Notes under the pieces: generated by a model
Told to the model about the DNA's origin: nothing
The model's input: only the letters and a program-made list of their open reading frames with translations
The model's database searches: none
Shown here: positions 1-20,000 of the stretch, one piece after another
Layout of the letters: each line of letters begins with the position of its first letter
How positions within the stretch are numbered: the stretch's first letter is position 1
Program-made: the position numbers and the translations under genes
Source: an uncultured virus (IMG/VR IMGVR_UViG_3300009159_000059)
Taxonomy: Duplodnaviria > Heunggongvirae > Uroviricota > Caudoviricetes
Virus record (IMG/VR): IMGVR_UViG_3300009159_000059
Direction: 5' to 3' (one strand)
Length of the DNA: 20,000 nt

Positions 1-507
1 CCATCTTCTAACCAAGCTCATATCTATAACAACGTTAATAATGCTTGGGTGAAGCAGTTTACTCTTTTTCCGACAAATGCTCCAGCTCAATCTAGATTTG
101 GTACTAATGTTAAATTATCTGGAGACGGTAATTTTTGTTTAGTATGTGATCCAACAGGAGGCGTTGGTGGTTATATTATAGCTTATGGTAGGAGCGGAAC
201 TAATTGGGTCCAGCTACAATTAATTAATGAGTCAGTGCAGAATATAGGCAATAAATTTGGACAGAGCTTGGCTATTAGCTATGATGGTACAAAATGCGTG
301 GTTGGAGCTGATGGTGTTAATCAGAACACCGGCAGAACATATGCTTTTACTAGAAATGGCTTAGCTTATGACGAAGAAGCGGTGTTTGGGCCATCAGATG
401 TCGCGGGTGGCATTAGATTCGGATACGCTACGAGTATGTCTTCAGACGGCACCACTACTGTGTCTTCAGCAATTGATGCTAATTCTGCATATATATTTAT
501 CAAATAA
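1..507 (+). CDS. FG-GAP-repeat beta-propeller protein, 5'-truncated; probable virion fibre/adhesin component
   Basis: Frame 1 is open from base 1 (PSSNQAHIYNNVNNAWVKQF...), so the GTG at 49 is internal. It has three FG-GAP-like repeats (RFGTNVKLSGDG, KFGQSLAISYDG, RFGYATSMSSDG) plus the tail of a fourth. Stop is TAA at 505-507. Confidence 0.8.
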   Translation, partial: PSSNQAHIYNNVNNAWVKQFTLFPTNAPAQSRFGTNVKLSGDGNFCLVCDPTGGVGGYIIAYGRSGTNWVQLQLINESVQNIGNKFGQSLAISYDGTKCVVGADGVNQNTGRTYAFTRNGLAYDEEAVFGPSDVAGGIRFGYATSMSSDGTTTVSSAIDANSAYIFIK

Positions 508-1164: not shown

Positions 1165-4100
1165 ATGAGCATAAAGATCCAAGTGCGTAGGGACACAGCC
1201 AGTAATTGGTTGTCCGTAAATCCAATCTTATCCTCAGGCGAAATCGGTTTAGAAACTGATACCTTGAGATTTAAATATGGTGATGGGACCCTTAAATGGG
1301 AAGATCTGCCTTATCCCTCTATCGGAGGAGGGAGTGTCCAATCGATTTCTGCTGGGTATGGGCTTCTCGGTGGTATTATAACTAGCCAAGGCGAAATAAA
1401 TGTCGATGGAAATATTGCTCTTGATGTCCTAAGCGAACAAGCTCTGGCTAATAAGGCTTTTAAAAACAAATCTGGAACATTTACCAATATCTTCGTCGAC
1501 AATGGCATATTGAATCTGGACCTATCCGCATCTAATAATTTTATCGTAAATTTTGAAGAAGACATCGATAGCTTTACCACTTCTAACAATCCAGAAAATG
1601 GTATGGCTTTCGTTATAACTCTCGTGTTGAATATTACAACTGGCTCAGCCGTCACTTGGCCATCTAATATCATATGGCCAGACAACGTGTTCCCTACCAG
1701 CAGTGCTGTCGGGACTACAGATATCTTTAAATTATTGACCATCGATGGTGGTTCGTCATTTTATGCTTACATAGTTGGCCAAGGGTATAACACTAATTCT
1801 ATACCACCGAACTTCTTGGATGAATTCTTAAGTCCTAGCGATGGTAAACCAGGCGATGGCTTTGGCATATCGGCTGCTATTTCAAAGGATGGTAGAACTG
1901 CTGTGGTTGGTTCTATATATAATCAATATTCTGGCGCCGCATATGTGTTTAGAAGATCTGATAATAGATGGCTACAGATAGCCAAACTACTTGGCGAAGA
2001 TAATGAAAGTGCTTTTGGAACGTCAGTTGCGATTTCTGAATATGGTGATGTGATAGCAGTAGGTGCACCTCAAGAAGGCACCAACGATATTGGCGCTGCT
2101 TATATCTTCACCGAAGCCAATGATTCTTGGTTAAACAATAAAATAATACCTGAAGATAGCGCCGACATAACGGCTAAAAATTTAGTTAGGCTATTTGGCT
2201 CAAGTGTCTCGCTTTCTAATGATGGTACTCTTCTCATTGTTGGAGCCCCAGACTTTGATGTTCCAGATAATCAAAACACCGGCGCGGTTTATGTGTTTAG
2301 ATCCGACGGTCCGCCAACGCCACCACCACCGCCAATTAATAATTATTATATATATGGAACCGGTAAAAACACAGATTGTGAACTTGGCCTAGGTGATAAA
2401 AACAATAGGGCACTTTTTACATTAATCAAATCAGCGACACCGCTGCAAATAGCGGTAGGTAAGAATTATGCTTTATATATAAAGCATGATGGAACATTAT
2501 GGGCAACTGGTAAAACTGGATTAGGCCTACCGTCCGATCCGATGAACCAGTCTTATCGAAATTTTATCCAATTAGGCAGTGATTATTGGCTTGATGTTAA
2601 AGCTAATAATAAAGGAACTACATTACTCATTAATGCCGATGGATCACTTTGGGGATGTGGTTATAACCAAGATGGTAATCTTGGTATTGGCATAACGACG
2701 AATGTTAACGACCTGATTATGCTTGATGATAATAATTGGCGAGCCATAAGCTGCTGCTCTTCTAGTTCATATGGCATTAAATCTGATGGGACCCTTTGGA
2801 GCTGGGGCGACAACACATATGGCCAGCTTGGACATGGAGATTTATACCCTAGACTGTATCCTGCTGAAGTCGGGGTCGACGCTGGTACCTTTGGCACTAA
2901 TGTTACTGGCGGCACTGGCGGCACTGGCGGCACTGGCGGCACTGGCGGCACTGGCGGCACTGGCGGTACAAATCCTGTTTATACTGATTGGGTTTACATT
3001 TCGCAAGGAAGTTCTGCGCATCATGTGTTCGCCATACGAAACGATGGAACTAACGCTACACAAGAAGATGGTACATTGTGGGCATGGGGTAAGAATAATC
3101 TGTACCAATTGGGTCTTAATGATACTATCGATAGAAGCACACCAACACGGGTCAATTCTGAATTCTGGATTAAGGTAGAAGCTGGGACTGACAGTAGCGC
3201 TGGTATCACTTCGGCCGGAGAGTTATTTGTTTGGGGCTATAATTCTTATGGCGAGCTTGGTCTGAATGATGTTGTTGTTAGGCCAATACCTACTAGAAAT
3301 GCGTTTTTTCCAGCCTTTTTTAGTGATTTGAGCTTTAATGGCCATACTTTAATCGCTCTAGACACTATAGGTTACATGTACGGCGCAGGTTTTAATTATT
3401 ATGGGCAATTAAGCCAAGGCTTTTTTAGCGCTAACGATCCATCAAATCAGATAAGAATGTTAACTCAGATAACCAAATCAGGTGGTTGGATTATCGCTAC
3501 TATCCTTGATTCTTTAATAGCGTCACGTGACAGTTTACTACCACCACCGGTAGCAGGACCGACACCTACACCTGTTACGCCAACACCGACTCCAACTTCT
3601 ACGCCTACGCCGACTCCTACACCTACACCAACGCCAACGCCAACCCCTGCGGAATGTGCCACAGTATGGACTGGACGCACGTTACCTGGCCTATCGATTG
3701 GCACAATCGCCGCAAGTCCAGATAAAATAGTAATCACGACTGCAGATGGCGGGACAGCTGCGGTGTCGACAGACGGGATAAACTGGTCGTTAAGCTCAAT
3801 ACCTAGCACGACATGGGTCGATGCGATGTATGCAAATAATTTATTCTTAGTGAGTGGCTATGATGCCGTCAATGTAGGCACGCAGCGTCTGATATCGTCA
3901 CCGGACGGTATTAATTGGACACCTATAGCATTACCAATTGGCATAGCCGGAAAAATGGCGTCCGGCAATTCGATTTATTTAATCTTTAGCGTATGGGGAA
4001 CATCATTTCTTCGATCTAATGACCTGATTACTTGGCTGCCTGGTACTTTACCAACTCCGATCGATTGGATTTGCGCTCAAGTGATTCATAATGGTGTCTA

Positions 4101-7100
4101 TTTCTTAGCCACCAGCTCCAATTCAGACACTTATATAATATCGACCGATGGTATTAATTGGACTGTGTCATCATTTCCAAGCAGCACATCTAGAAATTGG
4201 CAAGCTACTACATTTGGCTTAGGCCTTTTTGTGGCTATAAACTATAGTGCTAATCCGCCGCTATCTTTAACCTCTAGCGATGGTGTTACTTGGGTCAGCA
4301 ACACGATGCCTTTGGTTGGAAAGTATTCAAGGGTGATTTTTGGAAATGGCTTCTTCCTTGCGCTAATTGAAGAATCAACATATGGAGCTCTATCGTACGA
4401 TGGTAGAACATGGTCTACAGTAACTCTACCATACTCTTCTAGTTGGAAAAATGGTGTTTATGCTCACGATATGTTTATAGTTTCTGACCTCGGTAATAAT
4501 CAGAACTATATCACATCGCCATGTAAGAAAACGCCTACGCCTACACCGTCAGGAACATATACTTGGCATTACGTAATATCAGGTTTAAATACTAGAGGCC
4601 AACTAGGGTTAAGCGATATAGCGGACAGAGACCAATTTATAGCCCAATCGTGGAATACATTACCAGTAAATTCAAACGATTTTCCTTGTATCAGCCATGG
4701 CTACGATCATACGATGATGGTGAAAACTGACGGTAGTTTATACGCTTATGGTAACAATGATAGAGGCCAATTAGGCTTGCCGACATCGATGGGAGCTTAT
4801 TTAAACGTTCCAGTTTTAGTGTCTGCCGGACCTTACCACACTGTTTCATGTGGATATAAATACTCTATAGCTGTTGCTGCTAACGGTGACATATTTGCAA
4901 CAGGTGCGAACGAGAGTGGGCAATTAGGTGTCGGTGATTTAACAGACAAGATGGGCCTGACCCAATTGGTCGGCTATAAAGCATACATCGGCACAGATCC
5001 AAAGGTAGGCGCTACGCCATGTGTAGCCACAGGAAAAACAGCGACAGTGATGGTGTTATTAATAAGAATGACGAGTGGTGATTTAATACCAAGATACTAT
5101 TCATGGGGTCTAAATCAATCTGGCCAACTAGGCCAATCTAATAGTGACTACTCTTATCAGACATCGACCCCTAGTGAGATAGCAAACCTTAACGCCTCTA
5201 CACAACCTGCAGTATATGGCGGAATATTGAATCATCATTTCTTTGCAATAGCTTTAGATTCAGACTATAATCACATCTTCTGTGGATGGGGTAATAATGA
5301 CCGCGGCCAGCTGGGCAACGCCTTAATTAACATAGATAACCCTATGCTTGGGGCTGTAAGTGGATGGTCGAGTGATTCAATAAAAATATTTAATGTGGCT
5401 ATCGGACAAAGTTTTACAGCCTTTATTGCGCAGACTGGGATAGGAAGCCCCGCATCACTATTGATCTCTGGTGCTAATGACCGCGGCCAAATCGGAGTCC
5501 CAGTTGGTAATTCCACTAATATCTTTACAGAAGTTCCATTTCCAGTGAATTACACAAGCTGGGATAAAATAAGTGCTGGTGCTGATTTTATTTATGCTAC
5601 CGCCAGACAGACTGGTAGCCGAAATACTTTTGGCTGGGGCGACAACACATATGGTCAACTAGATGGCGGACCTACAGCTCCTAACAGTTATATCTCGCCA
5701 ACATTATTAGATGCACGAGAATCTGAGACATTAAACACTAACCATCTTGGTTTCGGATTTGGCGGGTATTGGGCTTATTATACCGATACACCATCAGCGA
5801 GTGCATGCGCAATACGCTTAAAATATAATGGAGTGTCGACGAGAATAGGATCAAATGGTTTATCGTTCGCTGTCGGTGATGTAATAACCGTTGCCGGTAT
5901 AGGCGGCCTTGGTGCTTGGTCTTCTGTCGATGGTGTGTATAAAATAAAAGATTTTGACAACACTAATGGGATGATTGTCGAGTGCGTTTCGCCAGGGTGT
6001 TTTAATGGCTGGAATACAGCGAGTGGTTCCTTAGCTGCCCCGATAGTCATGGGTAGAGCTATAACATCAAATGGTGGCGCTGTGGTAACATCTACAGCCA
6101 CGACGGGTAACGTACCATGGGAAGTGAATTTTTATTGCAACGTGACCCCTACTCCAACTCCTACTCCGACCCCGACGCCAACTCCGACGCCAACTCCGAC
6201 GCCATCAGCCGGTGGCTCTGCTTTTGCAGCTGGTGCCGCTGGCCTTATCTCAGCCAAATTAGGAGTCATAACTCCTAAATTCACTAAATTTTCACCTGAC
6301 AATACATCTTGGAAATTCGCAGCTGTCGATAGTTTTTATGGCGCGTTCCTTATTAAATCAGATGGTACACTATGGGGCTCTGGGTATAATACTTACGGCC
6401 AACTCGGTACTGGTACAAATAAGACCGTTACAGATATGGTTCAGATTGGTACTGACAATGATTGGAAATTCATAACCGCCGACGCAGCATCAACCATTGC
6501 TATGAAGGATGACGGTACTATATATGGCGCTGGCTACAATGACTCTGGAACACTTGGTTTGGGTGACCGACTACCACGGATGTTCTTTACTTTAATAAAT
6601 TCTGATACTTGGTTGACGATAAAAACATATCGACACCAAACCGTGGGTGTGCGTTCAGATGGTAAACTGTTTATATGGGGCTTATTTAGTGACGTATTTT
6701 ATTCTAGTAACAATATAAATAGTCCACCTAGAGATGTGCCATTTGAACTGGTAGATGCCGGAAGTGGTTATATAAAAGCAGATTGCGGATATAATACTTT
6801 GTATGCCATAAAGTCTGATGGTTCATTATATGGTATGGGTGAAAATGGGTCAGCCCAGATAATGATGCCGCCAAGTACTATAATAGAAAGTATGACTAAA
6901 TTAACTTCATCAGAGAATTGGGTTGATATTGCAGCCAGCGACCAAGCACTACTATTGCTAAATGATATTGGTGAGATCTTTTCGTTTGGTATAGGGGAAG
7001 TATTAGGGACAGGTAAACGGTATACTCCTAATGGTCTTGAAAAAATCGATAAGGATTTTAAATATACAAAGGTATTCGCTACAACCAATGTCGCCGGAGC

Positions 7101-10100
7101 ATTAAAAACTAACAAAAGGTTAATGGTTTGGGGAAATAATTATTACAATGCGCTTTCTTTAGCCTTGGTAAATAAAATAAGCACACCACAAATATCAAGG
7201 CCAGACAATATGTATGATCATGTGGCCTTGTCGGCGACATTTTCTATAGCCATCGGTGCTGTCAATTTAACACCTACACCTACGCCTACAATACCAAATG
7301 TTTTATATGTAAATGGTCGCAATATTTATGGTAATTTGGCTACTGGCGATACCATCGGTAGAGGTTCTTTTTATGAAATATTGAGAGATAATGCCAAAGC
7401 TGCAGCAGCCTCAGAGAGTGCTTGCGCTGTTGTAAAATCAGACGGTACATTATGGACAGCGGGAACTAATTTTAATGGCATATTGGGGCAAGGAAGCAAC
7501 AATATGCTAAAACAATATACATTAATGCAAGTTGGAACAGATACTAATTGGGTGAATGTAGAATCAAACAGCCTCTCCGCGTTTGCAGCATACAAAGAAA
7601 ATGGTGACATATATGTCTGGGGCCAGTCAGGTGTACCTGATTTAATACCTTTTAACGCGTCGAATCCGGGAATCTTTACTAGCCCAACACTTGTGGCTCT
7701 TGCAGATATTTCAAAAATAGTGTATCTATATATAACTGATCTAATAGTTATTAAAGACAATGGGTCTTTATGGGCTCAGGGAAATAATTCTAACGGTAAC
7801 CTTGGGCTTGGAGCGAATGCAACGATTAACACCTTAACTCAAGTTAACGCCGGCCCATTTAAGACTAGTAGAACATCGTACGCCTACAATGGCTCTAATG
7901 GCATGTACATCAAAACCGACGGAACGTTGTGGGCTACAGGAGCTAATGGCTTACAGACGCCTTGTTCTGGGTTTTTAGGAACAGGCGATACTTCAATCGT
8001 AAACGTCTTAACCAAAATCGGCACCGACACAAATTGGGATAAAGTCACACTCATCTGGGACTACGGGGCTTATGCGATTAAAACAGATGGTACACTTTGG
8101 GGATGTGGCACACAGATACTTAATCAAAACAATACTGCGAATTTTGGTTCTTCTTTAACATTTGTTCAGATTGGCACAGACACAGATTGGCATGATTTTG
8201 CAGGCACTAGCTATCAAGAATTATACATTATTAAAAACGATGGTAGTCTGTATGCTGCTGGAAATAATTTACTTAATAATTTTACAGGACCTATTGCTTC
8301 GATCAATCGAATTAACGATCCGATGACATTTAATTATGTAAGCAGCGGCCTATGGGATAATGGTAACTTCTTTGTCAGCGGCATCCTTGTACCACCAGGC
8401 CCAACACCAACGCCAACACCGACACCTACGCCAACTGGTTGCGCCATAAGCTCGTTAACCTTGACACAATTAGCGCCCGCTAATTATAATTCCTACGGTA
8501 TCGCTATAAGCCCTGATGATAAAAACATATACACATCTAGCACATCTAGCCCTCCCAATAGTTTACCTATAGTCAATATTTATCAAAGAAATATGTTTAA
8601 CGGTAGTTTAACGCTAATGCAAAATATTTCTACTCTTGTAAATCCTATCTCTATTTGTGTAAGTCCAGATGGAAAGTTTGTTTATACTGTTATTGATATT
8701 GATGCTAAGATTTTCATCTATTCAAGAAATGCCACGACTGGTGTGCTAACCGATGTGGGATCAGTCGCAACCGAAACTGGTTACTTATATTTAAATACTA
8801 CTATCCTCCTACAACCGCGTGAAATGTGCATAAGCCCAGATGGAAAAAACGCTTATGTAATTTGTTCTAGGGGCGATTCCCCAAATAATGCTATGATAGA
8901 TGTCTTTACCAGAGACATAGTTACAGGTTTATTGACTCATTTTGAAACAGTCGAAGGCGATATAGGACCAAATAGTTATTCAATTTGTATAAGTCCTGAT
9001 GGCCTTGATGTTTATGTTACAGATTATGATAGCGTCAATGGGGTACGTCTGTTCTCAAGAAATGCTTCAACAGGCAGCCTGACATTCAATGGGTCCATTG
9101 CATCGGGCTTAGATCCACATGGAATTATCGTTAGCCCAGACGGTCTTTCCGTCTATGTCACAAGCGTCAATAATGGCGGCCTTAACGATCAAATAAGCAT
9201 CTATACTAGAGATGCGGCTACAGGATTACTCACAGACGCGGGCTCAATAGCAACTGGTGATAAGCCATACCAATTATCAATAAGCGATGACGGTTATTCA
9301 GTTTATACTGCTAACAAGACAGGTCAAAAGATCTCGGTCTATTCTAGGGCCTCAGATGGATCGCTCACGGCTGATGGTTCTGTGTCAACCAGCGGCCAAT
9401 ATCCATATCGCAGTGTAGTGAGCCATGATGGCAAGAATGTTTATATGACGAATCTTGATTCAAATCACATATCTGTGTTTGCAAGAACATGCGGGTCTGC
9501 TCCTCCACCAAACACTAACCTTTTAGTGTCAGGCATGAGGACAAGCAGCATAGAGCTAGGCGTCCCTGCGAGCTATGTGCCTGCAGTTCCTAACAACTAC
9601 ACTTTCTATGGTGTCAGTAACGTTGCTACTTGGGACGGTGTCTTTGGGAACACAAATGTCTTATTTGCAACTAAAGGTGGCGAATTATGGGCATGTGGTC
9701 GAAATAACTTTGGGCAGCTTGGTATAGGTAATACTACAAATCAAGCTGAATTAGTGCAAGTCGGCAATGGCACCGACTGGAGTTATGTGGTTACATCTGG
9801 TGTCAGCACGCTAGCATTAAAGACCGATGGTACCTTATGGGGAACAGGTTATAATAGCTTCGGCGAATTAGGTCTTGGTCATACTAACCAAGTTAACACA
9901 TTCACACAAGTCGGTGTTGAGACAGACCATAATAATAATATAGCAATGAGTACGACCGGAAGCTCATATGTTTATAGAAGTGGTATACTTTACGCTACTG
10001 GCAACAATGCGAATTATCAGCTCGGAACAGGTAATACCATTAATTTAAGCACATTTAACGCAATGGATGCGCAAAGTTGGTATAATGGTCCATGGATGAT

Positions 10101-12930
10101 GGCGGCTCTTCCAAGCGCATTTATAGCGATCAAAGATGATAATACACTTTGGGGCGTCGGTAAAGGTTACGAACCACCAAGCGGTCAATTATCCGGCTAC
10201 CATCGCTATGGTGGCGGTATCGATGCTTACTTTTCTTTTCTTACTCAGATCGGCACCGACACTGATTGGATAAGATGCTTCTCTACTCAATATGGCGCAT
10301 CATTTGCTATCAAAGATGATGGCACTCTTTGGGCGACAGGGTTAAATGCTTTATCGCCATCGCAGAGTTATAGCATACTTGGTTTCAACCCTGCTACAAC
10401 CATCGGCTTGATGTACTATACTCAAGTCGGGACAGATACTGACTGGAATAATATCGTTAGTATGTCGAGCACAATTGGGCTAAAGAGTGATGGGACTGTT
10501 TGGGGGATCGGGCAGAATCAATACGGCCAATTAGGCCAAGGATCCACAAACGCTGTCGGGCCACTGTTTACTAAATTAAACAATGCGACCGATTGGACCC
10601 AAATTGCTCAGATGAATTATGGCACTGCCTTGTTGGGCTCCTTGGTGCCTGCTCCGACACCTACTCCAACACCAACACCTACCCCAGCTTCTTATTATGT
10701 TTATGGCTCTGGTAGAAATCAAGACCATCAACTTGGTATAGACACATTTGGTGCTGATTTGAATAACATGACATTGTTGACTAGTGGCAACGCTTCATCA
10801 GTCACAATATCGAATACTTCTAGTATGCTATTGATGAATGATGGTACGCCAACACCGACACCCACGCCCACACCTACACCCACGCCCACGCCAACGCCAT
10901 CTGCTAACACAGGTGCGATTTTTGGTTTTGGTTTAACCTCGAATTCAATGAATGTAAGCATCACTAACTTAGTTAATAGCTCTGGAGTCGTAGCAGCAGA
11001 TGTTACCTATATCGGACTAGTAAGGTCAAGTATAGCGGCTGCAGCTATTGGTGGCGGTAAGGCGATTTTTGCTTATGGTGTAACTGACCAATGGTTACCT
11101 ATGGTTACATTTAATACTGTCACAAATACCGGCGATTTAGAAACAGCACAAGACCTAGTGGGAACACGCAGAAAGAATCTAGCCGCCGCCCCTTATGGTC
11201 AAGGTCAAGCAGTATTTGCCTTTGGTGTAAATGAATCAGCGGTGGCGGTTTCAATTTCTAACAAAGTATCATCGCTCGGTGTTATTGAGACAGATAGCTT
11301 CGCTGTAGGAACATCTAGATCGCTTTTGGCAGCTGCCGGTTATGGTGCAGATAAAGGCATATTTAGTTATGGGCTAACTACTGCCGGGGTTGTAACTGTC
11401 ACGAATTTGGTAAGCAATCTCGGTGATATTATTGTCGACAGTGCCGGCGTCGGTACTGCTCGGTCAGGGCTAGCGGCTTCATCTTATGGCAGCGGTAAAG
11501 CGATATTCGGCTTTGGTAACACACAGGCATATTTATCGATCACCAATTTAATAAACGAAAATGGCGTAGTAGCAACCGATACTGCTGGCGTCGGCACAGA
11601 ACGTAGTAACCTAGCAGCAGCCGGCTACGGGTCAGGCAATGCGATCTTTGGTTATGGTTATAGCGGAAGCGGTTCATATGTCTCACTAAGCAATCTGGTT
11701 TCGAATGTTGGTGTGGTAGCTACAGACACTGCTGGCATTGGAATGGCACGAGTAAACTTAGCAGCTGCTAGTCTTTTAGCTGCCCCTACACCTAGCCCAA
11801 CGCCGACTCCAACGCCTACACCAACGCCGACTCCAACGCCAACGCCTACACCAACGCCAACATCGACACATTGTTTATCACAGATCCAGAGAATAGCAAC
11901 TCCCAATGGCATGTTTGCGCATGGAAATATAGTATCTCGTGACCAAAAATATGTCTATGCTAAAATGTATGGTTCTCAAACCGGCTTTGTCCAAGGTGTG
12001 GCTCAATATAAGATTACAGCTTTAGGAACATTAGAATATTTATCTTTATACAGTACCGGGGGATGGGATATATATGAGTCGCAATCTGGGACACATGTCT
12101 ATACTATCGATAACCAAAACGATACAATAGCGATTCTATCCAGAAATACCACAGATGGCACACTGGGGACACCGACTATATTGGCGACACCATACCCACC
12201 TGGTGAATTAATTGGTTCCGCTGATGGCAAGCACATTTATATAACTAATATCAACCGCGGTCCGGCGCCATATATGGCTAGAATAATGATATATGATATC
12301 AATAGCACTAACGGGATGTTATCATACAATAACACGATAGATATTCCAGACTCATCACCAATCGCATTTTCAATGACTTTATCGCCAAGTGGTCTATATT
12401 TTTATGCTATAACTGGCGCTCCTTATGGTGTCACTAATGCTGGTAACAAACTAAACGTGTTCATACGGAATACGACCTCTGGGACGCTGATTCTAATCGA
12501 TGCATTAGATATACCCGCAAATACCAGCGATATCCTGATATCATCGGATGGTCTATATTTATACACGATGGGCTTCCAGCAAAGTAACGGGATTAATAGT
12601 ATCGAAATAAATACATATGCCATCGGTATAACAGGCGGTTTGACATCAACTGGGACCACATATGTTATGGAAGCCAACGGTGGTGTTGGTAAAACACAAA
12701 TGATAGAAGCAACGGATGGGACAGCCATCTATTGTACAAGAGGAAAATCTGGGATAGTAATCGATAAAAACCCAACGACAGGCATAATAACCGGAAGCAC
12801 GGAGATTTTAAACTTAGTGCTTGGTGGAAGCGTGACTATAGCAGCTAAAAACTCAGATGTTAGATTTATCTATGTCGGTGAATATAGCAATAAGTCTATA
12901 GTGACTCTAAGCACGCTTTGTCCACCATAA
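1165..12930 (+). CDS. Giant (3921 aa) modular fibre/adhesin with an Mtd_N anchor and multiple beta-propellers joined by Pro-Thr linkers
   Basis: Order by motif: anchor ~1165-1790; FG-GAP x3 1813-2310; RCC1 x7 ~2335-3540; Asp-box (SxDGxxW) propeller 3655-4524; RCC1 x7 ~4550-5785; small Cys-flanked beta domain 5806-6138; RCC1 x7 ~6210-7260; RCC1 x7 ~7300-8390; lactonase/YVTN-like x7 8440-9492; RCC1 x7 ~9515-10645; single RCC1 repeat 10687-10845; Kelch-like AIFG(Y/F)G x6 ~10910-11780; lactonase-like x7 11872-12921. No signal peptide is evident. Confidence 0.9.
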   Translation: MSIKIQVRRDTASNWLSVNPILSSGEIGLETDTLRFKYGDGTLKWEDLPYPSIGGGSVQSISAGYGLLGGIITSQGEINVDGNIALDVLSEQALANKAFKNKSGTFTNIFVDNGILNLDLSASNNFIVNFEEDIDSFTTSNNPENGMAFVITLVLNITTGSAVTWPSNIIWPDNVFPTSSAVGTTDIFKLLTIDGGSSFYAYIVGQGYNTNSIPPNFLDEFLSPSDGKPGDGFGISAAISKDGRTAVVGSIYNQYSGAAYVFRRSDNRWLQIAKLLGEDNESAFGTSVAISEYGDVIAVGAPQEGTNDIGAAYIFTEANDSWLNNKIIPEDSADITAKNLVRLFGSSVSLSNDGTLLIVGAPDFDVPDNQNTGAVYVFRSDGPPTPPPPPINNYYIYGTGKNTDCELGLGDKNNRALFTLIKSATPLQIAVGKNYALYIKHDGTLWATGKTGLGLPSDPMNQSYRNFIQLGSDYWLDVKANNKGTTLLINADGSLWGCGYNQDGNLGIGITTNVNDLIMLDDNNWRAISCCSSSSYGIKSDGTLWSWGDNTYGQLGHGDLYPRLYPAEVGVDAGTFGTNVTGGTGGTGGTGGTGGTGGTGGTNPVYTDWVYISQGSSAHHVFAIRNDGTNATQEDGTLWAWGKNNLYQLGLNDTIDRSTPTRVNSEFWIKVEAGTDSSAGITSAGELFVWGYNSYGELGLNDVVVRPIPTRNAFFPAFFSDLSFNGHTLIALDTIGYMYGAGFNYYGQLSQGFFSANDPSNQIRMLTQITKSGGWIIATILDSLIASRDSLLPPPVAGPTPTPVTPTPTPTSTPTPTPTPTPTPTPTPAECATVWTGRTLPGLSIGTIAASPDKIVITTADGGTAAVSTDGINWSLSSIPSTTWVDAMYANNLFLVSGYDAVNVGTQRLISSPDGINWTPIALPIGIAGKMASGNSIYLIFSVWGTSFLRSNDLITWLPGTLPTPIDWICAQVIHNGVYFLATSSNSDTYIISTDGINWTVSSFPSSTSRNWQATTFGLGLFVAINYSANPPLSLTSSDGVTWVSNTMPLVGKYSRVIFGNGFFLALIEESTYGALSYDGRTWSTVTLPYSSSWKNGVYAHDMFIVSDLGNNQNYITSPCKKTPTPTPSGTYTWHYVISGLNTRGQLGLSDIADRDQFIAQSWNTLPVNSNDFPCISHGYDHTMMVKTDGSLYAYGNNDRGQLGLPTSMGAYLNVPVLVSAGPYHTVSCGYKYSIAVAANGDIFATGANESGQLGVGDLTDKMGLTQLVGYKAYIGTDPKVGATPCVATGKTATVMVLLIRMTSGDLIPRYYSWGLNQSGQLGQSNSDYSYQTSTPSEIANLNASTQPAVYGGILNHHFFAIALDSDYNHIFCGWGNNDRGQLGNALINIDNPMLGAVSGWSSDSIKIFNVAIGQSFTAFIAQTGIGSPASLLISGANDRGQIGVPVGNSTNIFTEVPFPVNYTSWDKISAGADFIYATARQTGSRNTFGWGDNTYGQLDGGPTAPNSYISPTLLDARESETLNTNHLGFGFGGYWAYYTDTPSASACAIRLKYNGVSTRIGSNGLSFAVGDVITVAGIGGLGAWSSVDGVYKIKDFDNTNGMIVECVSPGCFNGWNTASGSLAAPIVMGRAITSNGGAVVTSTATTGNVPWEVNFYCNVTPTPTPTPTPTPTPTPTPTPSAGGSAFAAGAAGLISAKLGVITPKFTKFSPDNTSWKFAAVDSFYGAFLIKSDGTLWGSGYNTYGQLGTGTNKTVTDMVQIGTDNDWKFITADAASTIAMKDDGTIYGAGYNDSGTLGLGDRLPRMFFTLINSDTWLTIKTYRHQTVGVRSDGKLFIWGLFSDVFYSSNNINSPPRDVPFELVDAGSGYIKADCGYNTLYAIKSDGSLYGMGENGSAQIMMPPSTIIESMTKLTSSENWVDIAASDQALLLLNDIGEIFSFGIGEVLGTGKRYTPNGLEKIDKDFKYTKVFATTNVAGALKTNKRLMVWGNNYYNALSLALVNKISTPQISRPDNMYDHVALSATFSIAIGAVNLTPTPTPTIPNVLYVNGRNIYGNLATGDTIGRGSFYEILRDNAKAAAASESACAVVKSDGTLWTAGTNFNGILGQGSNNMLKQYTLMQVGTDTNWVNVESNSLSAFAAYKENGDIYVWGQSGVPDLIPFNASNPGIFTSPTLVALADISKIVYLYITDLIVIKDNGSLWAQGNNSNGNLGLGANATINTLTQVNAGPFKTSRTSYAYNGSNGMYIKTDGTLWATGANGLQTPCSGFLGTGDTSIVNVLTKIGTDTNWDKVTLIWDYGAYAIKTDGTLWGCGTQILNQNNTANFGSSLTFVQIGTDTDWHDFAGTSYQELYIIKNDGSLYAAGNNLLNNFTGPIASINRINDPMTFNYVSSGLWDNGNFFVSGILVPPGPTPTPTPTPTPTGCAISSLTLTQLAPANYNSYGIAISPDDKNIYTSSTSSPPNSLPIVNIYQRNMFNGSLTLMQNISTLVNPISICVSPDGKFVYTVIDIDAKIFIYSRNATTGVLTDVGSVATETGYLYLNTTILLQPREMCISPDGKNAYVICSRGDSPNNAMIDVFTRDIVTGLLTHFETVEGDIGPNSYSICISPDGLDVYVTDYDSVNGVRLFSRNASTGSLTFNGSIASGLDPHGIIVSPDGLSVYVTSVNNGGLNDQISIYTRDAATGLLTDAGSIATGDKPYQLSISDDGYSVYTANKTGQKISVYSRASDGSLTADGSVSTSGQYPYRSVVSHDGKNVYMTNLDSNHISVFARTCGSAPPPNTNLLVSGMRTSSIELGVPASYVPAVPNNYTFYGVSNVATWDGVFGNTNVLFATKGGELWACGRNNFGQLGIGNTTNQAELVQVGNGTDWSYVVTSGVSTLALKTDGTLWGTGYNSFGELGLGHTNQVNTFTQVGVETDHNNNIAMSTTGSSYVYRSGILYATGNNANYQLGTGNTINLSTFNAMDAQSWYNGPWMMAALPSAFIAIKDDNTLWGVGKGYEPPSGQLSGYHRYGGGIDAYFSFLTQIGTDTDWIRCFSTQYGASFAIKDDGTLWATGLNALSPSQSYSILGFNPATTIGLMYYTQVGTDTDWNNIVSMSSTIGLKSDGTVWGIGQNQYGQLGQGSTNAVGPLFTKLNNATDWTQIAQMNYGTALLGSLVPAPTPTPTPTPTPASYYVYGSGRNQDHQLGIDTFGADLNNMTLLTSGNASSVTISNTSSMLLMNDGTPTPTPTPTPTPTPTPTPSANTGAIFGFGLTSNSMNVSITNLVNSSGVVAADVTYIGLVRSSIAAAAIGGGKAIFAYGVTDQWLPMVTFNTVTNTGDLETAQDLVGTRRKNLAAAPYGQGQAVFAFGVNESAVAVSISNKVSSLGVIETDSFAVGTSRSLLAAAGYGADKGIFSYGLTTAGVVTVTNLVSNLGDIIVDSAGVGTARSGLAASSYGSGKAIFGFGNTQAYLSITNLINENGVVATDTAGVGTERSNLAAAGYGSGNAIFGYGYSGSGSYVSLSNLVSNVGVVATDTAGIGMARVNLAAASLLAAPTPSPTPTPTPTPTPTPTPTPTPTPTSTHCLSQIQRIATPNGMFAHGNIVSRDQKYVYAKMYGSQTGFVQGVAQYKITALGTLEYLSLYSTGGWDIYESQSGTHVYTIDNQNDTIAILSRNTTDGTLGTPTILATPYPPGELIGSADGKHIYITNINRGPAPYMARIMIYDINSTNGMLSYNNTIDIPDSSPIAFSMTLSPSGLYFYAITGAPYGVTNAGNKLNVFIRNTTSGTLILIDALDIPANTSDILISSDGLYLYTMGFQQSNGINSIEINTYAIGITGGLTSTGTTYVMEANGGVGKTQMIEATDGTAIYCTRGKSGIVIDKNPTTGIITGSTEILNLVLGGSVTIAAKNSDVRFIYVGEYSNKSIVTLSTLCPP
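2905..2967 (+). repeat. 9-bp tandem repeat (ACTGGCGGC)x7 encoding (TGG)7
   Basis: Six perfect copies plus ACTGGCGGT, in frame, inside a loop of the first RCC1 domain. Confidence 0.95.
3541..3648 (+). repeat. Pro-Thr linker (degenerate CCN-ACN hexamer repeat)
   Basis: PPPVAGPTPTPVTPTPTPTSTPTPT... separates the first RCC1 domain from the Asp-box propeller. Confidence 0.9.
6145..6204 (+). repeat. Pro-Thr linker (TP)10
   Basis: Degenerate hexamer repeat between the small beta domain and the third RCC1 domain. Confidence 0.9.
8392..8436 (+). repeat. Pro-Thr linker
   Basis: PPG(PT)6 lies between the fourth RCC1 domain and a lactonase-like propeller. Confidence 0.85.
10648..10686 (+). repeat. Pro-Thr linker preceding the isolated RCC1 repeat
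   Basis: Encodes [13 protein letters not shown]. Confidence 0.85.
10846..10899 (+). repeat. Pro-Thr linker (TP)9 following the isolated RCC1 repeat
   Basis: Begins directly after ...MLLMNDG. Confidence 0.9.
11785..11862 (+). repeat. Pro-Thr linker
   Basis: PTPSPTPT... lies between the Kelch-like and last lactonase-like domains. Confidence 0.9.
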
Positions 12931-12969
12931 TTTAATTTTTTTAGATATCAAGATTTAAGCGAGAATACC

Positions 12970-15900
12970 ATGACGACAAGCAACAGTTTATTATTAGCCG
13001 GCGGTAATTTTTACGGCCAGCTAGGAGCATCAAGTACTCTTAAACCAACATTTGAATATTGGGCTTTTTCTAGTAAGTATGGTCCTTGGGCTAAAGCATC
13101 AACATCAGACAGCGGTCATACACTATTGATTAATATTGACCAGACATTGTGGGCGTCAGGGAATAACGAATACGGGCAGCTGGGGATTGGCACCACCGGC
13201 GCTGGCTATACACAATTTACTAAAATTAATGATACTATACAATGGATGGACGTTGCTACTTCAAACTGGGGTTCTTATGGCCTCAGTACAGTAGGCAATT
13301 TATATATTTGGGGAAGACAGGCAAGCAATAATTTTAATCCCATTGTTTCCATCACAGAGTTAGTTGTTTTAGATTATGTGGGCGGTAAGGTAAAATTCAA
13401 AAGCCTTGCTACCGGCAGTGGTACAAATCACATGCTTTTGATCGACAATGATGGTCAACTGTGGGGATGGGGTTCAAATACACGAGGACAATTAGGCTTA
13501 GGTGATACTTCAGTGCGCATAAATCCTGTTTTGATAAACGCAAATGAATGGCTATCTGCTGCAGTCGGAGATTCTTTTTCTATAGTATTAAGGAAAGATA
13601 ACACACCATGGGGCACTGGTGCTAATGATAGTTTTCAGTTAGGCCAAGGCTCATTCGACTCAAATGATAAAACAGTCTTGACAGCAATAAATACAACATC
13701 ATCATCTTCTAAGATCATTACCCAAATCGCTGCAGGAACAAAGAGTGCCCTTGCTCTAGACAACACTGGGCAGGTTTATGGCTGGGGTGGTAATACTTAT
13801 GGCGAATTAGGCCTAGGACATAATTTAAAAGTGCCTGATGCAGCACTTATCCAGAACCTGCCAGGACCAGCAAGCTATATAGCTATTAAAGACCATTCTA
13901 TTATAGTAGTAAGCAACGAAATGCCAACTCCTACACCATGTGTGGCTGGAGAATTAATTATCGCCGGCACAGTGGCGACGGCCGTTAATGCCTACGATTT
14001 AGCGATATCAAGTGATCAGAAGAATGTCTATGTGGTTCATTTAACCGGAGACATAATATCTATCTATGATCGAAATATAACCACTGGCGCACTTACAAGT
14101 GCAGGGACCATAGCCACAGGCGAATCATCTACAGCTGTTATATTATCAAACGACGGTATCAATGTCTATGTGGTTAACTCTGCCGGCCAAACAATTTTTA
14201 TCTATAATAGGAATTTAACCACTGGCGCACTTACCAGCGCCGGAACCATAGCGACAGAAGATGCACCAAGAGACATAGTCGCATCAAATGATGGTAAAAA
14301 CGTCTATGTGGTTAATAGTCAAAGCAATACAGTCTCTATTTACGATAGAAATTTAACCACTGGCGCACTTACCAGTGCTGGAACAATAGCCACTGGTGAT
14401 AGTCCATTTAATATAGCGATATCAAATGATGACAAGAATGTTTATATAAATGAATCTGCTGATGAATTAGTGATTTATAATAGAGATTTAACCACTGGCT
14501 CACTTACCAGCGCTGGAACCATAGCCACGGAGCAGGGTAGTTGGGGTATAGCGGTGTCTAGCGATGATAAGAATGTTTATGTAGTGAATGGTGCAAATGG
14601 TAGTAGCAACACTATCTCGATCTATATTAGAAATTTATCAACTGGCGCACTTGCCAGCGCTGGTACCATAGCCACTGGTACTGGTTCACTCGGGATAGCT
14701 GTACCAAATGATGGCAAGAATGTCTATGTTGTAAACTCTGTTAGTAACACACTTTCGATTTATAGCAGAAATACTACTACTGGTGCTCTAACAATCGCTA
14801 GCACTATAGCCACTGGTTCAACGCCATACAATGTTATCGTGTCAAGCGATAGCAGACATGTTTATGTATGTAACGAGACGGACGACATAATTTCGGTCTT
14901 TACCACATGTGAATCAACACCTACTCCAACACCTACTCCAACTCCAACTCCAACTCCAACACCAACACCAACACCAACACCAACACCAACACCAACACCA
15001 ACACCAACACCATGTGTTGTTGGAGATTTAATAAGCGCAGGCACGATAGCTACGGGAGAATACCCAGCTAGTTTAGCTCTGTCTATCGATCAAAAGAATA
15101 TTTATGTTACTGGCAACTACGCAATTTCTATTTATAACAGAAATTTAACGACTGGCGCACTTACCAGCGCTGGGACCATAGCCGCAACATCGGGAACAGT
15201 TGATATAGTCGCAACGGTCGACAATATTAGCGTTTATGCTGTTAGTTCTGACAGTAATTCGATATTAATCTATAATAGAGAATTGACTGCTGGGGCACTT
15301 ACAAACTTTGGAACCATTGCTACTGGTACTGGACCGCTGAGCATAACTGCGACGATTGATAATATGAGCGTATTTGCGGCTAATTCTGGAGACGATACGC
15401 TTTCGGTATACGACAGAGATATAACCACCGGCGCACTCACTAATATTGGAACTTTAGCAACTGGAGACACGCCTCGGGACTTGGCAGTATCTAATGACGG
15501 GAAGAGCATTTATGTGACTAACCAAAATAACAATTTAATATCAATTTATAGCAGAGACTTAGTTACTAGAGTAATCACCAGCATCGGCACTATCGCAGCA
15601 GGTAGCGTGCCCTGGGGTGTAGTAGTATCTAACGATAATGATAATGTTTATGTGGTGAATGGTGGTAGCAACACAATCTCGATCTATAACCGAAACTTAA
15701 CTACTGGCACACTTACTAGCGCTGGAACCATAGCTACAGGCGATAACCCGCTCAAAATAGCTATCTCAAATGATGATACAAAAGTTTATGTGACTAGTTA
15801 TGGCATAAATTCACTTTCGATTTATAATAGAAATATAGTCACCGGCGCTTTGACTAGCGTCGGTTTTATAGCCGCCGGCACTACACCATACACAGTAGTA

Positions 15901-16899
15901 GTATCAAATAATAATAAAAACGTTTATGTGACTAATTCAGGTGCAGACACAATCTCCATTTTTGCTGTTTGTGAGTTAACTCCAACACCAACCACTTCAG
16001 TCGGTGCCGTATTTGCTTTTGGTAATAATAGTTCGAATATAATCAACCTAGTTTCAGATATCGGTATTATCACTGAGGATATAAGCGTTGTTGGTACAGC
16101 TAGATATTCGGGGGCTGCGGCATCGTTCGGGACCAGCGGAACTGGCAAAGCGATCTTTGCATATGGTGTTAACGCTAGCACCCAGTCTGTTTCTTTATCG
16201 AACATCATATCCAGTGGCGGAACTGTGGCTTATGATACAGCTGGAGTAGGCACAGCAAGATATGGCTTAGCAGCTGCAGGATACGGAGCCGGCAAAGCAC
16301 TATTTGGGTTTGGCGATGCTGGAAAATATTTTCAGTCATACATTCCAGTAAGTATAACTAATCATGTCACTGACAATGGCATAATATCTTCAGATACCAT
16401 AGGAGTTGGAACAACGAGATACGGCTTAGCTGCGGCTTCTTATGGCACAGACAAAGCAATATTTGGCTTCGGATTTAAAAACTCTCCTAATTTACATCTC
16501 TCTATAACTAATTTAGTATCGAATACTGGTGTTGTCTCGACCGACACGACTGGTGTTGGAACTGGTCGTCGTGATCTCGCCGCCGCTGGCTACGGAGGAG
16601 ACAAAGCAGTATTCGGAGGCGGTAATGGTGATTATAATTCTGGTTCATTTGGCACCTATAATCTTGTCGATAATAATGGCATAGTTTTAAACAATAACAC
16701 ATTCGCGACATTCAGGCAATGGTATGGTTCAGCCTCTTCTTTTGGGCAATCTGGAGCAGAGCAAGCTATCTTTTCTTTTGGTTTTGTTCCTAACACCCAG
16801 ACATCATTTACGCTGATAATAAATAATAATGGAATACCAAGCAGCGAAGTCGCTCAGATCGGATCGGAGAAGCATAGTGCGTCTGGTGCTAAGTTATAA
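12970..16899 (+). CDS. Anchorless modular beta-propeller protein (1309 aa): RCC1 x6, two lactonase/YVTN-like 7-blade propellers and Kelch-like x6
   Basis: RCC1 repeats span 12970-13920 (six). [13 protein letters not shown] propellers span 13939-14910 and 15013-15972. AIFGFG/TDTTGVGTAR repeats span ~16003-16896. PT linkers join the modules. A weak SD (GAGA) is at 12961-12964. Confidence 0.9.
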   Translation: MTTSNSLLLAGGNFYGQLGASSTLKPTFEYWAFSSKYGPWAKASTSDSGHTLLINIDQTLWASGNNEYGQLGIGTTGAGYTQFTKINDTIQWMDVATSNWGSYGLSTVGNLYIWGRQASNNFNPIVSITELVVLDYVGGKVKFKSLATGSGTNHMLLIDNDGQLWGWGSNTRGQLGLGDTSVRINPVLINANEWLSAAVGDSFSIVLRKDNTPWGTGANDSFQLGQGSFDSNDKTVLTAINTTSSSSKIITQIAAGTKSALALDNTGQVYGWGGNTYGELGLGHNLKVPDAALIQNLPGPASYIAIKDHSIIVVSNEMPTPTPCVAGELIIAGTVATAVNAYDLAISSDQKNVYVVHLTGDIISIYDRNITTGALTSAGTIATGESSTAVILSNDGINVYVVNSAGQTIFIYNRNLTTGALTSAGTIATEDAPRDIVASNDGKNVYVVNSQSNTVSIYDRNLTTGALTSAGTIATGDSPFNIAISNDDKNVYINESADELVIYNRDLTTGSLTSAGTIATEQGSWGIAVSSDDKNVYVVNGANGSSNTISIYIRNLSTGALASAGTIATGTGSLGIAVPNDGKNVYVVNSVSNTLSIYSRNTTTGALTIASTIATGSTPYNVIVSSDSRHVYVCNETDDIISVFTTCESTPTPTPTPTPTPTPTPTPTPTPTPTPTPTPTPCVVGDLISAGTIATGEYPASLALSIDQKNIYVTGNYAISIYNRNLTTGALTSAGTIAATSGTVDIVATVDNISVYAVSSDSNSILIYNRELTAGALTNFGTIATGTGPLSITATIDNMSVFAANSGDDTLSVYDRDITTGALTNIGTLATGDTPRDLAVSNDGKSIYVTNQNNNLISIYSRDLVTRVITSIGTIAAGSVPWGVVVSNDNDNVYVVNGGSNTISIYNRNLTTGTLTSAGTIATGDNPLKIAISNDDTKVYVTSYGINSLSIYNRNIVTGALTSVGFIAAGTTPYTVVVSNNNKNVYVTNSGADTISIFAVCELTPTPTTSVGAVFAFGNNSSNIINLVSDIGIITEDISVVGTARYSGAAASFGTSGTGKAIFAYGVNASTQSVSLSNIISSGGTVAYDTAGVGTARYGLAAAGYGAGKALFGFGDAGKYFQSYIPVSITNHVTDNGIISSDTIGVGTTRYGLAAASYGTDKAIFGFGFKNSPNLHLSITNLVSNTGVVSTDTTGVGTGRRDLAAAGYGGDKAVFGGGNGDYNSGSFGTYNLVDNNGIVLNNNTFATFRQWYGSASSFGQSGAEQAIFSFGFVPNTQTSFTLIINNNGIPSSEVAQIGSEKHSASGAKL
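14917..15012 (+). repeat. Pro-Thr linker (TP)16 including nine perfect ACACCA units
   Basis: The perfect hexamer run spans 14959-15012. Confidence 0.95.
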
Positions 16900-16920
16900 T
16901 CTAAAGAGTAAATAGATTAT

Positions 16921-16926
16921 AAGGAG
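16921..16926 (+). promoter_or_regulatory. Strong Shine-Dalgarno site
   Basis: AAGGAG lies 8 nt upstream of ATG 16935. Confidence 0.8.
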
Positions 16927-16934
16927 AAAATAAT

Positions 16935-17558
16935 ATGGCAAGCAAGTTGAATTCGGAATTTAATTATCGTTACCAAGTCCAAGGCGAGACAGTCTGGGAA
17001 AAAATTAAAACCCTAAAGGGTTTTCTAGAGGGCCGAATAAGGGCAGCAGCTCTTGAAGAAATTAGCGAAAAGAAATACCAAGCTAAACTACTCGAATTAG
17101 AGCATCTTAAAAAGACTAATGCTTTACCGCACGTTATCCTTAATCTCGAAGCAGAGATTATGGAAACTGAAAGCTTTTTCCAAACACAGACTGAAGCTTT
17201 TAAATTGAATCTAGATGAAATAGCTATCTTAAATAAATTATTGGCTGAAGCTTATGAAATAGCAGAGCCGACAAGGATAGAAGGATACACCGATGAGCAG
17301 ATGTTCGAGGCAAATGCGGCAAATGAGTTCACAGTGATGATTGGTAAGGATATCCAAGCTGAGATAATTGCCCATGGCCGACCAAGCGCCGCAAAGATCA
17401 GAAATGCTATGTCTAACCCTATGACGCTATTAGCACTTCAGAACGCTGGTCTGATACCTAAAGAGGCCATCATGCTTCGTGGTAACGATAGTCCGCTGTC
17501 TATAGAACTTAAGCCTGCTGCTTTAGAAGACCGCTCTACACAACAGCTGATCCAATAA
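16935..17558 (+). CDS. Hypothetical alpha-helical / coiled-coil protein (207 aa)
   Basis: Strong SD. The E/K/L/A-rich amphipathic segments (e.g. EKKYQAKLLELEHLKK, FKLNLDEIAILNKLLAEAYE) suggest helices. No transmembrane segment or catalytic motif was recognised. Confidence 0.85.
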   Translation: MASKLNSEFNYRYQVQGETVWEKIKTLKGFLEGRIRAAALEEISEKKYQAKLLELEHLKKTNALPHVILNLEAEIMETESFFQTQTEAFKLNLDEIAILNKLLAEAYEIAEPTRIEGYTDEQMFEANAANEFTVMIGKDIQAEIIAHGRPSAAKIRNAMSNPMTLLALQNAGLIPKEAIMLRGNDSPLSIELKPAALEDRSTQQLIQ

Positions 17559-17597
17559 TATTATTAAATATAAATTTATTAAATCTTAACCGACAAA

Positions 17598-17605
17598 GAT
17601 AAATA
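17598..17605 (+). promoter_or_regulatory. Candidate T4-like late promoter
   Basis: GATAAATA is a 7/8 match to TATAAATA, in an AT-rich intergenic region ~33 nt before ATG 17638. A weaker TAAATA lies at 16909-16914. Confidence 0.35.
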
Positions 17606-17624
17606 GTGATGGATTTATCAGGTT

Positions 17625-17628
17625 GGAG
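17625..17628 (+). promoter_or_regulatory. Shine-Dalgarno site
   Basis: GGAG lies 9 nt upstream of ATG 17638. Confidence 0.65.
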
Positions 17629-17637
17629 TGAATATAA

Positions 17638-20000
17638 ATGGCATGGAAACAAGAGGCTATAATCTACCCCGGACGTAACGCTCCTCCAGCGCCAGTGCCG
17701 ACACCGACACCGACTCCAACACCAACCCCAACCCCAACACCTTTCAGTGCTCTAAAATATATCGCTACGGCTGGAAAAATTGGTGGGTTCGACAGTCTTA
17801 CACAAAAAGCCTGGATAGCTAATAATCTAAATAGCTGGGTGCCTTTCGACCTGCCAGTTTCAGGCAGTTGGACCAACAGCATTTATGGTAATGGCAGATT
17901 TGTACTGGCCGATCTTAATACCAAGCGTATATCTTTATCATCCACAGACGGTATAAATTGGACGCAAGGAATAATACCGCCAGATTTTATATCAACTAAC
18001 CCAAATCCGCCAAGACCATTATTTGTCTACGCCGCATCAGCATATTCCAACGGTATCTTCATCGTCATGAGTGATGATGGTAATTCTTGCATAAGATCTA
18101 CCGATGGCATAAATTGGGATTACATAATTATAAATACCGACAGACCAACCGGACCATCATCATATACCGGTATTGTTAATATTGCTGTTAATAACGTAAA
18201 CACGATTGCTTGTAGTGACGGCTTTGGTGGAGTATTATACTCTACCGATAACGGTATAAATTGGACTTGGAAAAGGATACTCGGAGATGCTAATGATATT
18301 TACGGGTGGTATGGTATCGCTTATGGAAAAGGCAAATTCGTTTTAATCCAAAATGGTGCGTCTTCTGGCACCAACACCAGAGGCAAAACCGCCATAACTA
18401 GCGATTTTATTTCTTTCACATATGGCAATATACCTAACGGTGGCTGGTATTTCGCTGGTTATAATCCTATCTTTGAAAAATATTACGCTTCTAGTTATAG
18501 CCCACGTAGCATTTATTCTAGTGTGGATGGTTTAACTTGGTCTTTAGAAATATCTGAAGTATTAACCTCTAGTCCTTATGTCTTTGATGGTAATAATTTA
18601 ATCGCGCCAAGCTATGTTTATTTGCCGCCTAATGGTGTATGGAAATATTTCAATATAGATCCAAACAATAATAGTAATGATTTTCTCGTCTCCGCTTCTT
18701 ATACTGCCCCAACTCCTGCACCGACCCCAACACCAACCCCAACACCGACACCGACTCCTACACCGACACCGACACCGACTCCTACACCGACACCAACTCC
18801 TACACCGACACCAACGCCGACTCCAACGCCAACACCTACACCAACACCTACTCCTACACCAACACCTACTCCGGCATTTTCTGGTTCTAGCGTTTACATA
18901 GGAAATTCTACACAAACACTTTCGATATTTTCGCGCGACGCTAGCACGGGGCTATTGTATGGTACATCTACAATTGCTTCAGGATCGTCAAGCGGTGCAA
19001 CTATCAATGGTGTTTGTGTTTCCGCTGATGGTACAAACGTTTATGCCCTTGATGTTGATAACACTAGAATTTTAATATTTAATCGCGACATCAACACTGG
19101 AGAGTTAACAGCTAATGGTATAATTAGCACAGGTAATGGTCTGTCTAGAGAAATTGCTATTTCTGCTGACGGCACATGCGTTTATGTGGTTAAAGTAGTT
19201 ACGAGTAATGTCGAGAATTTAGCCTTACTCTTCAATCGGAACATTAGTACAGGGGCATTATCAGCTGGGACTACAATAAGCACCGGAAACGATCCATCAG
19301 GAATATGCATTTCATCTGATGGCTCTAGTGTATATGTGGTTAATCAAACTTCTGAAACGGTTTCAATATTTTCTCGAAATACTAGCACAGGAGTATTAAC
19401 TTCCAATGGCACAGTACCCACAGATGTAAATCCTTGGAAAATCATTATTTCAGCAGATGGCGCAAGCGTTTATGTTCTTTATACAGACGCGAAAATGATA
19501 ATTTTTTCTCGCAACACTAGCACAGGAGCATTAACCGACAATGGAACGATTACATTATCGACTGGTATCAATCAGTATACATATGGTTTTTGCATTTCTG
19601 TAGATGGAAAAAACGTTTATGTGACTAATAATTATTTTAACGAAGTATTAATCTTTGATCGCAACACTTCCACAGGAGGGCTTACTTCTAATGGTAAATT
19701 AACCTTAGCAGGCTATAATTACCCACAAAAGATTTGTATTTCAGCCGATGGGAAAAATGTTTATGTGGTTTGGTATGGTTCTAATAAAACGTCCATCTTA
19801 GACCGAAACACTAGCACAGGGTCATTAAGCGAAAGTAGCATAATAGCGTCAGGAGATGGATTTTTAGGAATTTGCATATATCCTTTATCTAATTCACCAA
19901 CGCCAACGCCAACGCCAACACCAACACCAACACCAACACCAACACCAACACCAACACCAACACCAACACCAACACCAACACCAACACCAACACCAACACC
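17638..20000 (+). CDS. Anchorless modular beta-propeller protein, 3'-truncated (>787 aa), absent from the ORF track
   Basis: Translated by hand with no stop to the window end. An in-frame TAA immediately precedes the ATG. Order: [14 protein letters not shown] linker 17683-17742, Asp-box propeller (STDGINW repeats) ~17745-18705, PT linker 18709-18873, lactonase-like x7 ~18880-19884, PT linker from 19897. Confidence 0.9.
18709..18873 (+). repeat. Long Pro-Thr linker (55 aa) with 18-bp higher-order units
   Basis: 25 consecutive PT pairs at 18721-18870. CCGACACCGACTCCTACA occurs at 18745 and 18769, with a variant at 18787. Confidence 0.95.
19897..20000 (+). repeat. Pro-Thr linker, perfect microsatellite running off the window
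   Basis: (CCAACG)3 followed by at least 14 perfect CCAACA units. Confidence 0.95.

Follow-up and report, generated by a model that had tools for sequence, protein, structure and literature searches.

Possible completion of a three-blade FG-GAP propeller fragment by the N-terminal peptide of a distant gene in a freshwater jumbo phage

Introduction

How is a beta-propeller completed when its chain halts in the middle of the third blade, and could the missing strand come from another gene? The question is raised by the fibre locus of an uncultured phage (Caudoviricetes; IMG/VR record IMGVR_UViG_3300009159_000059, here G000). In this locus a giant fibre protein carries an incomplete FG-GAP domain, and the last open reading frame (ORF 17638), 15 kb away on the same strand, opens with a short peptide resembling an FG-GAP outer strand, hereafter the tag. 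The window, that is, the whole 20,000-nt stretch that was analysed, is the final 20 kb of this 76-kb virus record. We consider it probable (about 0.6) that the tag completes blade 3 of the giant's fragment and so tethers the last ORF product to the fibre.

The end of a 274-kb record estimated to be 70% complete (G002) is identical to positions 12000-20000 of the window, and a relative of 87 kb (G001; 24% complete) spans the same locus and a few kb beyond it. G003 (27% complete) and G004 (13%) were also searched. All records stop inside or just past the fibre locus, and about 30% of the genome is absent. The sequencing runs in which the window is best represented are freshwater metagenomes, and the phage is called here an uncultured freshwater jumbo phage. 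The large proteins of the locus are strings of domains connected by proline-threonine (PT) linkers.

The three-blade fragment of the giant protein

The preliminary description of this locus reported three FG-GAP repeats in the giant protein, halting at position 2310 before a run of prolines, and Pfam and structure prediction agree on this. Three FG-GAP stretches were recognized (FG-GAP_2, PF14312; 92.7 bits against a cut-off of 23), with repeat anchors at nt 1861, 2014 and 2194. In the AlphaFold2 monomer of the fragment, blades 1 and 2 are four-stranded and blade 3 has only three strands, with a predicted local distance difference test score (pLDDT) of 86.7. Its top Foldseek matches are integrin alpha propellers (best E 1.5e-7; template modelling score 0.64 by query length).

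Seven blades per chain were not found, since all 4 giant N-termini (G000, G001, P0244 and P0245, the last two being partial proteins) have three repeats and break at the identical point. Across its 171 codons the fragment has 71 synonymous and 4 non-synonymous differences between G000 and G001; for the 212 codons that precede it the counts are 68 and 22. Judged by these codon counts, the fragment is strongly constrained and therefore no decaying relic.

The N-terminal tag of the last ORF

The last ORF was described as opening with a short peptide followed by a PT linker, and 14 residues do stand ahead of the linker. An in-frame TAA lies directly 5' of the ATG, so this ORF has no earlier start, and a frameshift into it is excluded by the same stop. 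A contig from run X4, a run not marked as a possible source, covers positions 17380-18380 with 0 differences, which rules out misassembly at the start; the start also lies within contigs from X5 and X6, with a few differences.

The resemblance of the peptide to the strand at intact FG-GAP junctions was evaluated with a profile of 721 distinct internal outer (D) strands, taken from the best 120 of 925 FG-GAP proteins, none of them from this phage. These proteins were retrieved with the giant's first 393 aa as query, the matches being crowded by generic FG-GAP proteins. Among 21,675 11-mers from plus-strand ORFs of at least 150 aa in G000, residues 2-12 of the last ORF rank third, with a score of 10.6. 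Apart from the tag, all of the nine highest-scoring 11-mers (8 of 9) are D strands of FG-GAP-type repeats; the best unrelated 11-mer reaches 5.1. Shuffled sequences attained the tag score in 9 of 20,000 cases, and the tags of G000 and G001 rank 1 and 2 among 2,544 ORF N-termini from 234 loci. On this profile evidence the match to a D strand is real, though not unique, and the likeness noted earlier is borne out.

When compared with individual strands, the tag is closest, in 5 of the 7 ORF1 orthologues compared, to their first D strand, and it has no particular likeness to a third blade. This would suit an arrangement in which the tag is a real donor strand whose acceptor is another FG-GAP propeller, encoded in the missing 30% or so of the genome; all records end in or just after this region, and the D strands of the family are alike, so that even a co-fold pass is no proof of specificity. 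Such an arrangement seems quite improbable to us, for it demands a second unusual object and leaves the three-blade fragment still to be explained, when a blade without exactly this strand is already known upstream in the same gene order.

Co-folding of the fragment and the tag

Two copies of the fragment were co-folded with two 30-residue tags, along with 3 controls; with two fragment copies present, the tag faced competition for the site. The score was 0.59, against 0.01 for the best control, with at least 61% contact agreement between runs and a partner pLDDT of at least 50. The co-fold mark is reached by 116 of 157 solved complexes and by 2 of 215 mismatches; at scores of 0.60 or less it is reached by 18 of the 157 and by both mismatches. 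This job differs from the calibration set, and passing may stem from likeness to solved propellers. The modelling thus gives weak support to binding between tag and fragment.

Where the missing blades could come from

According to the preliminary description, the remaining blades might come from the upstream FG-GAP protein, here ORF1, which was said to end mid-blade. In the predicted structure ORF1 has seven repeats and 28 strands (mean pLDDT 92.8; predicted template modelling score 0.92), and its N-terminal strand, residues 9-15, is ordered. All 12 aligned orthologues keep this strand, with an invariant Thr-Gln, and end at the last C strand. By the model, ORF1 forms all seven blades of a propeller and closes the ring with its own N-terminal strand. 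The observation that it ends at a C strand is literally right and also misleading, because this ending is the normal closure of seven blades, and ORF1 must be discarded as a source of the missing ones.

The unseen C-terminus of the last ORF had been put forward as a further source. We found no FG-GAP repeat in the part visible in the window and none in the full-length 717-aa orthologue of G001, which speaks against this proposal, the end of the G000 protein itself being unseen. The idea that the FG-GAP repeats sum to seven fails likewise, as the total falls short in the available sequence. FG-GAP searches of G001-G004 returned only ORF1, the giant, and a protease-led protein of another fibre region; no other FG-GAP array visibly missing a D strand was seen in these records.

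The protease-led protein was rejected as a partner, having about 12 FG-GAP-like repeats by eye, which is no complement of 3 to 7. It is a 1944-aa protein (L143:2251-8085) composed of a protease, a lactonase-type propeller and these divergent repeats; in the second locus of G001 the protease is a protein by itself, with a bare PT linker at its end. Two explanations at the DNA level were also rejected. Recombination joining the two halves finds no common repeat at the flanks of the break (best match 13 nt, E 0.14), and closure of the contig into a circle by way of the PT repeat is excluded by G002, which runs on upstream into another gene.

Weighing the evidence for a donor strand

The relative G001 keeps both the break and the tag, with 5 synonymous changes and 1 non-synonymous change in the 21 codons of the tag region. 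DNA identity between G000 and G001 falls right after the first PT linker of the last ORF, and the later modules differ. Modules are exchanged at PT linkers between the relatives: positions 17680-20000 of the window include a lactonase-type propeller, and G001 (L055:2798-4951) has a different repeat domain. When viral contigs were scanned by pattern, only two phages, G000 and G001, were seen to carry the tag. The ORF1 alignment hit 3 viral loci (one of them new and ending just after ORF1) and 0 loci in genome contigs; the gene at the end of G001, used as query, matched itself alone; and 6 metagenome loci all came from the other fibre region or from a distant phage.

Several points weigh against completion of blade 3 by the tag. 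The co-fold returned its score without contacts, and the binding site is thus not located. One unrelated N-terminus among the 2,544 scored 10.0. Blades 4-7 were not found with PF14312 and FG-GAP alignment searches in G001-G004, all of which are incomplete. A complete start of the tag gene is visible in two genomes only, among translatable sequence, and conservation between G000 and G001 is also high in the adjacent non-coding DNA, which makes the conservation test shallow. Finally, the giant has an N-terminal strand of its own that is conserved in G001 (6 synonymous and 0 non-synonymous changes in 12 codons), giving three D strands for three blades, so that closure as a homo-oligomer could work without the tag. 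The low profile score of this strand (-11.7) is no proof that it is dead, because the closing strands of ORF1 orthologues score from -10.2 to +1.8; we therefore dropped the view of it as degenerate. The preliminary description, which named oligomerisation among the sources of the remaining blades, had overlooked this strand.

The last point leads to a different account of the fragment, which would close as a homo-oligomer (two copies making six blades, three making nine), with the N-terminal strand of one copy completing blade 3 of its neighbour and the tag being no partner or an occasional substitute. The strand count balances without the tag, the N-terminal strand is under the conservation just given, and Mtd_N fibres, being trimers, would keep the copies together. 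In PMC9218822 short propeller fragments are described as able to fold through oligomerising, and natural oligomeric propellers as rare. We regard this closure as unlikely, since a high-scoring, conserved D-strand tag is left without explanation, and since the tag is still placed, if weakly, in a co-fold with two fragments. In the monomer model the N-terminal strand is partnerless and not formed as a strand (pLDDT 64), and, counting the tag, four D strands exist for three blades.

The tag could also be a functionless remnant of an old gene fission, or a chance match serving only the start of translation. It is short, only 13-21 codons can be compared in two genomes, and the unrelated N-terminus mentioned above nearly equals it. 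This seems very improbable given the 5 synonymous changes to 1 in the tag region, and given that the match starts at residue 2 of its gene and that this gene's locus is the one with a blade missing that strand.

Donation of the outer strand by the tag, as proposed in the preliminary description, thus has in its favour the profile match, conservation in the relative and a weak co-fold pass, and against it a co-fold without contacts. Conservation of the tag in homologues, a check suggested there, holds for G001.

Proposed assembly

In the mechanism that we propose, the tag of the last ORF would fill the outer strand of blade 3 near the start of the giant, and the modules of the last ORF would hang from the virion fibre on a flexible Pro-Thr linker. 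The giant itself would be anchored on the virion through its Mtd_N module, as its family annotation suggests. The split may have arisen when PT-linked modules were inserted into loops of a propeller and the gene was later cut inside such an insert. A third, still unsequenced downstream gene is predicted to carry blades 4-7 and to take the giant's N-terminal strand; with two conserved spare strands, an unseen four-blade gene is the simplest account.

More tentatively, and with more doubt than assurance, one FG-GAP propeller may be built from three gene products: three blades of the giant, the outer strand of the last ORF and four blades of the unseen gene. The last ORF product would then act as an adaptor at both ends, clipping onto the fibre by its N-terminal strand and recruiting a NAL1-like protease by its C-terminal tag, and peptide-sized couplings of this kind, together with a split RCC1 propeller, would build a branched, PT-linked tree of enzymes and adhesins on the virion.

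Other split propellers in the fibre regions

The RCC1 propeller of the locus is split over two genes into one and six repeats (Table 1), and this 1+6 split is kept in G001, where two lactonase-type modules of the 1309-aa ORF are absent (651 aa). In the other fibre region (L057:16457-16606, L143:505-1620; also L056 and L141), an RCC1 half-repeat stands between PT linkers, 700-1,400 residues ahead of an RCC1-like domain in which, by eye, one hairpin is missing; the Pfam matches of the short pieces are weak (E about 0.02). The half-repeat and this domain are a discontinuous propeller in one chain. Both the 1+6 split and the far half-repeat are the intermediates expected from a history of insertion followed by fission, and we count them in favour of the proposed assembly.

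A C-terminal tag before NAL1-like proteases

The G001 counterpart of the last ORF closes with a PT linker and a short hydrophobic peptide, and the gene of a trypsin-like protease follows immediately. This protease has a PHROG protease match, and PF25608, which we take to be the NAL1 family, is present on 2 of the 120 homologues listed. Around such proteases we collected 82 loci, 4 of them with no upstream ORF in view, which gave 49 distinct upstream C-terminal ends. A terminal motif occurs in 35 of these 49, against 2 of 637 other C-terminal ends; the motif was defined once the sequences had been inspected, the 49 include close relatives, and by eye several of the misses resemble variants. The peptide follows a Pro/Thr/Ser-rich linker (for example L055:2798-2830 on the minus strand of G001, L143:2203-2238, L150:2460-2500, and loci L155-L234), and the upstream reading frames range from fewer than 100 to more than 3,000 codons and look mostly unrelated. 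This pattern, drawn from sequence comparison, makes it likely that the hydrophobic C-terminal tag serves as a docking strand for the protease. A sequence comparison of the protease alignment with solved structures gave no match, and no paper on such a tag was found in a limited literature search.

Gene layout of the locus

The locus lies 3' of a head-tail adaptor gene (weak PHROG match, E 0.0004). Four of its genes begin with Mtd_N, whose PHROG matches are mostly tail fibre and structural proteins. They stand in tandem at G000 54362-69113 (window -1821 to 12930), and three of them have a 210-aa N-terminal module in common (36-39% identity). Three more genes upstream of the Mtd_N genes have another N-terminal module in common. 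Heterotrimeric fibres are possible. The 207-aa gene before the last ORF differs from its G001 counterpart by 59 synonymous and 6 non-synonymous changes, and copies 59-74% identical to it are present in many unrelated freshwater viral contigs. It was rejected as a marker for the tag, as 78 of 80 loci belong to unrelated phages without PT runs. A scan for promoters and terminators gave nothing informative.

Table 1. Features of the fibre locus, in positions of the 20,000-nt window
Position	Strand	Feature	Remarks
1..507	+	End of ORF1 (589 aa; G000 54921-56690)	Mtd_N, fibre module, seven-blade FG-GAP propeller, complete by the model
517..1152	+	ORF2 (211 aa)	Mtd_N and the same fibre module but no propeller; paralogous to the N-terminal parts of ORF1 and the giant
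1165..12930	+	Giant PT-linked fibre protein (3921 aa)	Mtd_N, fibre module, three-blade FG-GAP fragment
1165..12930	+	Giant fibre protein, further modules	RCC1-like and lactonase-type propellers, others
1810..1836	+	Candidate N-terminal strand of the giant (aa 216-224)	At the position of a closing D strand
1861..2154	+	FG-GAP blades 1 and 2	Four strands each
2194..2310	+	FG-GAP blade 3	Three strands only; proposed acceptor; last C strand ends at 2310
2311..2334	+	Pro-rich linker	At the break
10690..10845	+	Single RCC1-like repeat in the giant	Between PT linkers; kept in G001
12970..13920	+	Six-repeat RCC1-like domain	Repeats counted by eye; start of the 1309-aa ORF
16935..17558	+	207-aa gene	No Pfam or PHROG family
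17625..17628	+	GGAG, ribosome-binding-site-like motif	9 nt 5' of the ATG; identical in G001
17638..17679	+	N-terminal tag of the last ORF (14 aa)	Residues 2-12 resemble an FG-GAP outer (D) strand; proposed donor
17680..20000	+	Last ORF after the tag, 3'-open	PT linkers, 320-aa repeat domain without Pfam match, lactonase-type propeller

Comparison with known systems and significance

Donor-strand complementation is a known device of chaperone-usher pili. Strand augmentation by a tail peptide is described for PilC/PilY1 (PMC13711793). In these systems, as proposed here, a terminal peptide of about 10 residues adds a strand and links a large adhesin; their acceptor is a pilin domain and not a propeller blade, and no homology is claimed. 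In integrin-type propellers, according to PMC3192720, sequence preceding blade 1 supplies blade 7 with its fourth strand, and a calcium-binding loop motif is a feature of the FG-GAP/integrin propeller family. The giant's fragment is like these propellers (PF14312 / PF01839) in repeat sequence and fold, and ORF1 shows their N-terminal closure. The difference is that the giant has three blades instead of seven, and that its last outer strand is proposed to come from another gene.

Comparable to this arrangement is the split nozzle propeller of Pseudomonas phage A1002 (gp39/gp42; PMC13730344), whose incomplete blades receive strands from a second gene product. It is likewise a phage tail propeller, and the second product also docks fibres; that one belongs to the nozzle family, was resolved by cryo-electron microscopy and involves several strands over two blades, whereas ours concerns one FG-GAP strand and PT-linked fibre proteins and is modelled only. 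No nozzle was among the Foldseek matches listed, a direct comparison with podophage nozzle proteins not having been made. In Sec13/Sec16, an open six-bladed WD40 propeller is closed in trans by an N-terminal segment of Sec16 (PMC2922654). There too an N-terminal segment completes a blade of another protein and tethers a large partner; however, Sec16 contributes three strands while the outer one remains Sec13's own, whereas here the outer strand alone would be given to a three-blade acceptor, which does not correspond to the Sec13 type.

In the literature searched, which mostly excludes subscription papers and their supplements, no split FG-GAP propeller of a phage was found. Split propellers themselves are already known from Sec13 and A1002, and what would be new here is a single outer strand as donor on an FG-GAP fragment. 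If true, the proposal adds a single-strand FG-GAP version to the known split propellers, offers a short natural pair of tag and acceptor, and predicts a specific missing gene. The widespread C-terminal tag before NAL1-like phage proteases may be the more general result. If the N-terminal tag binds, an outer strand of 10 residues would suffice to suspend an entire protein from a phage fibre, and in such loci even widely separated genes would have to be treated as one assembly.

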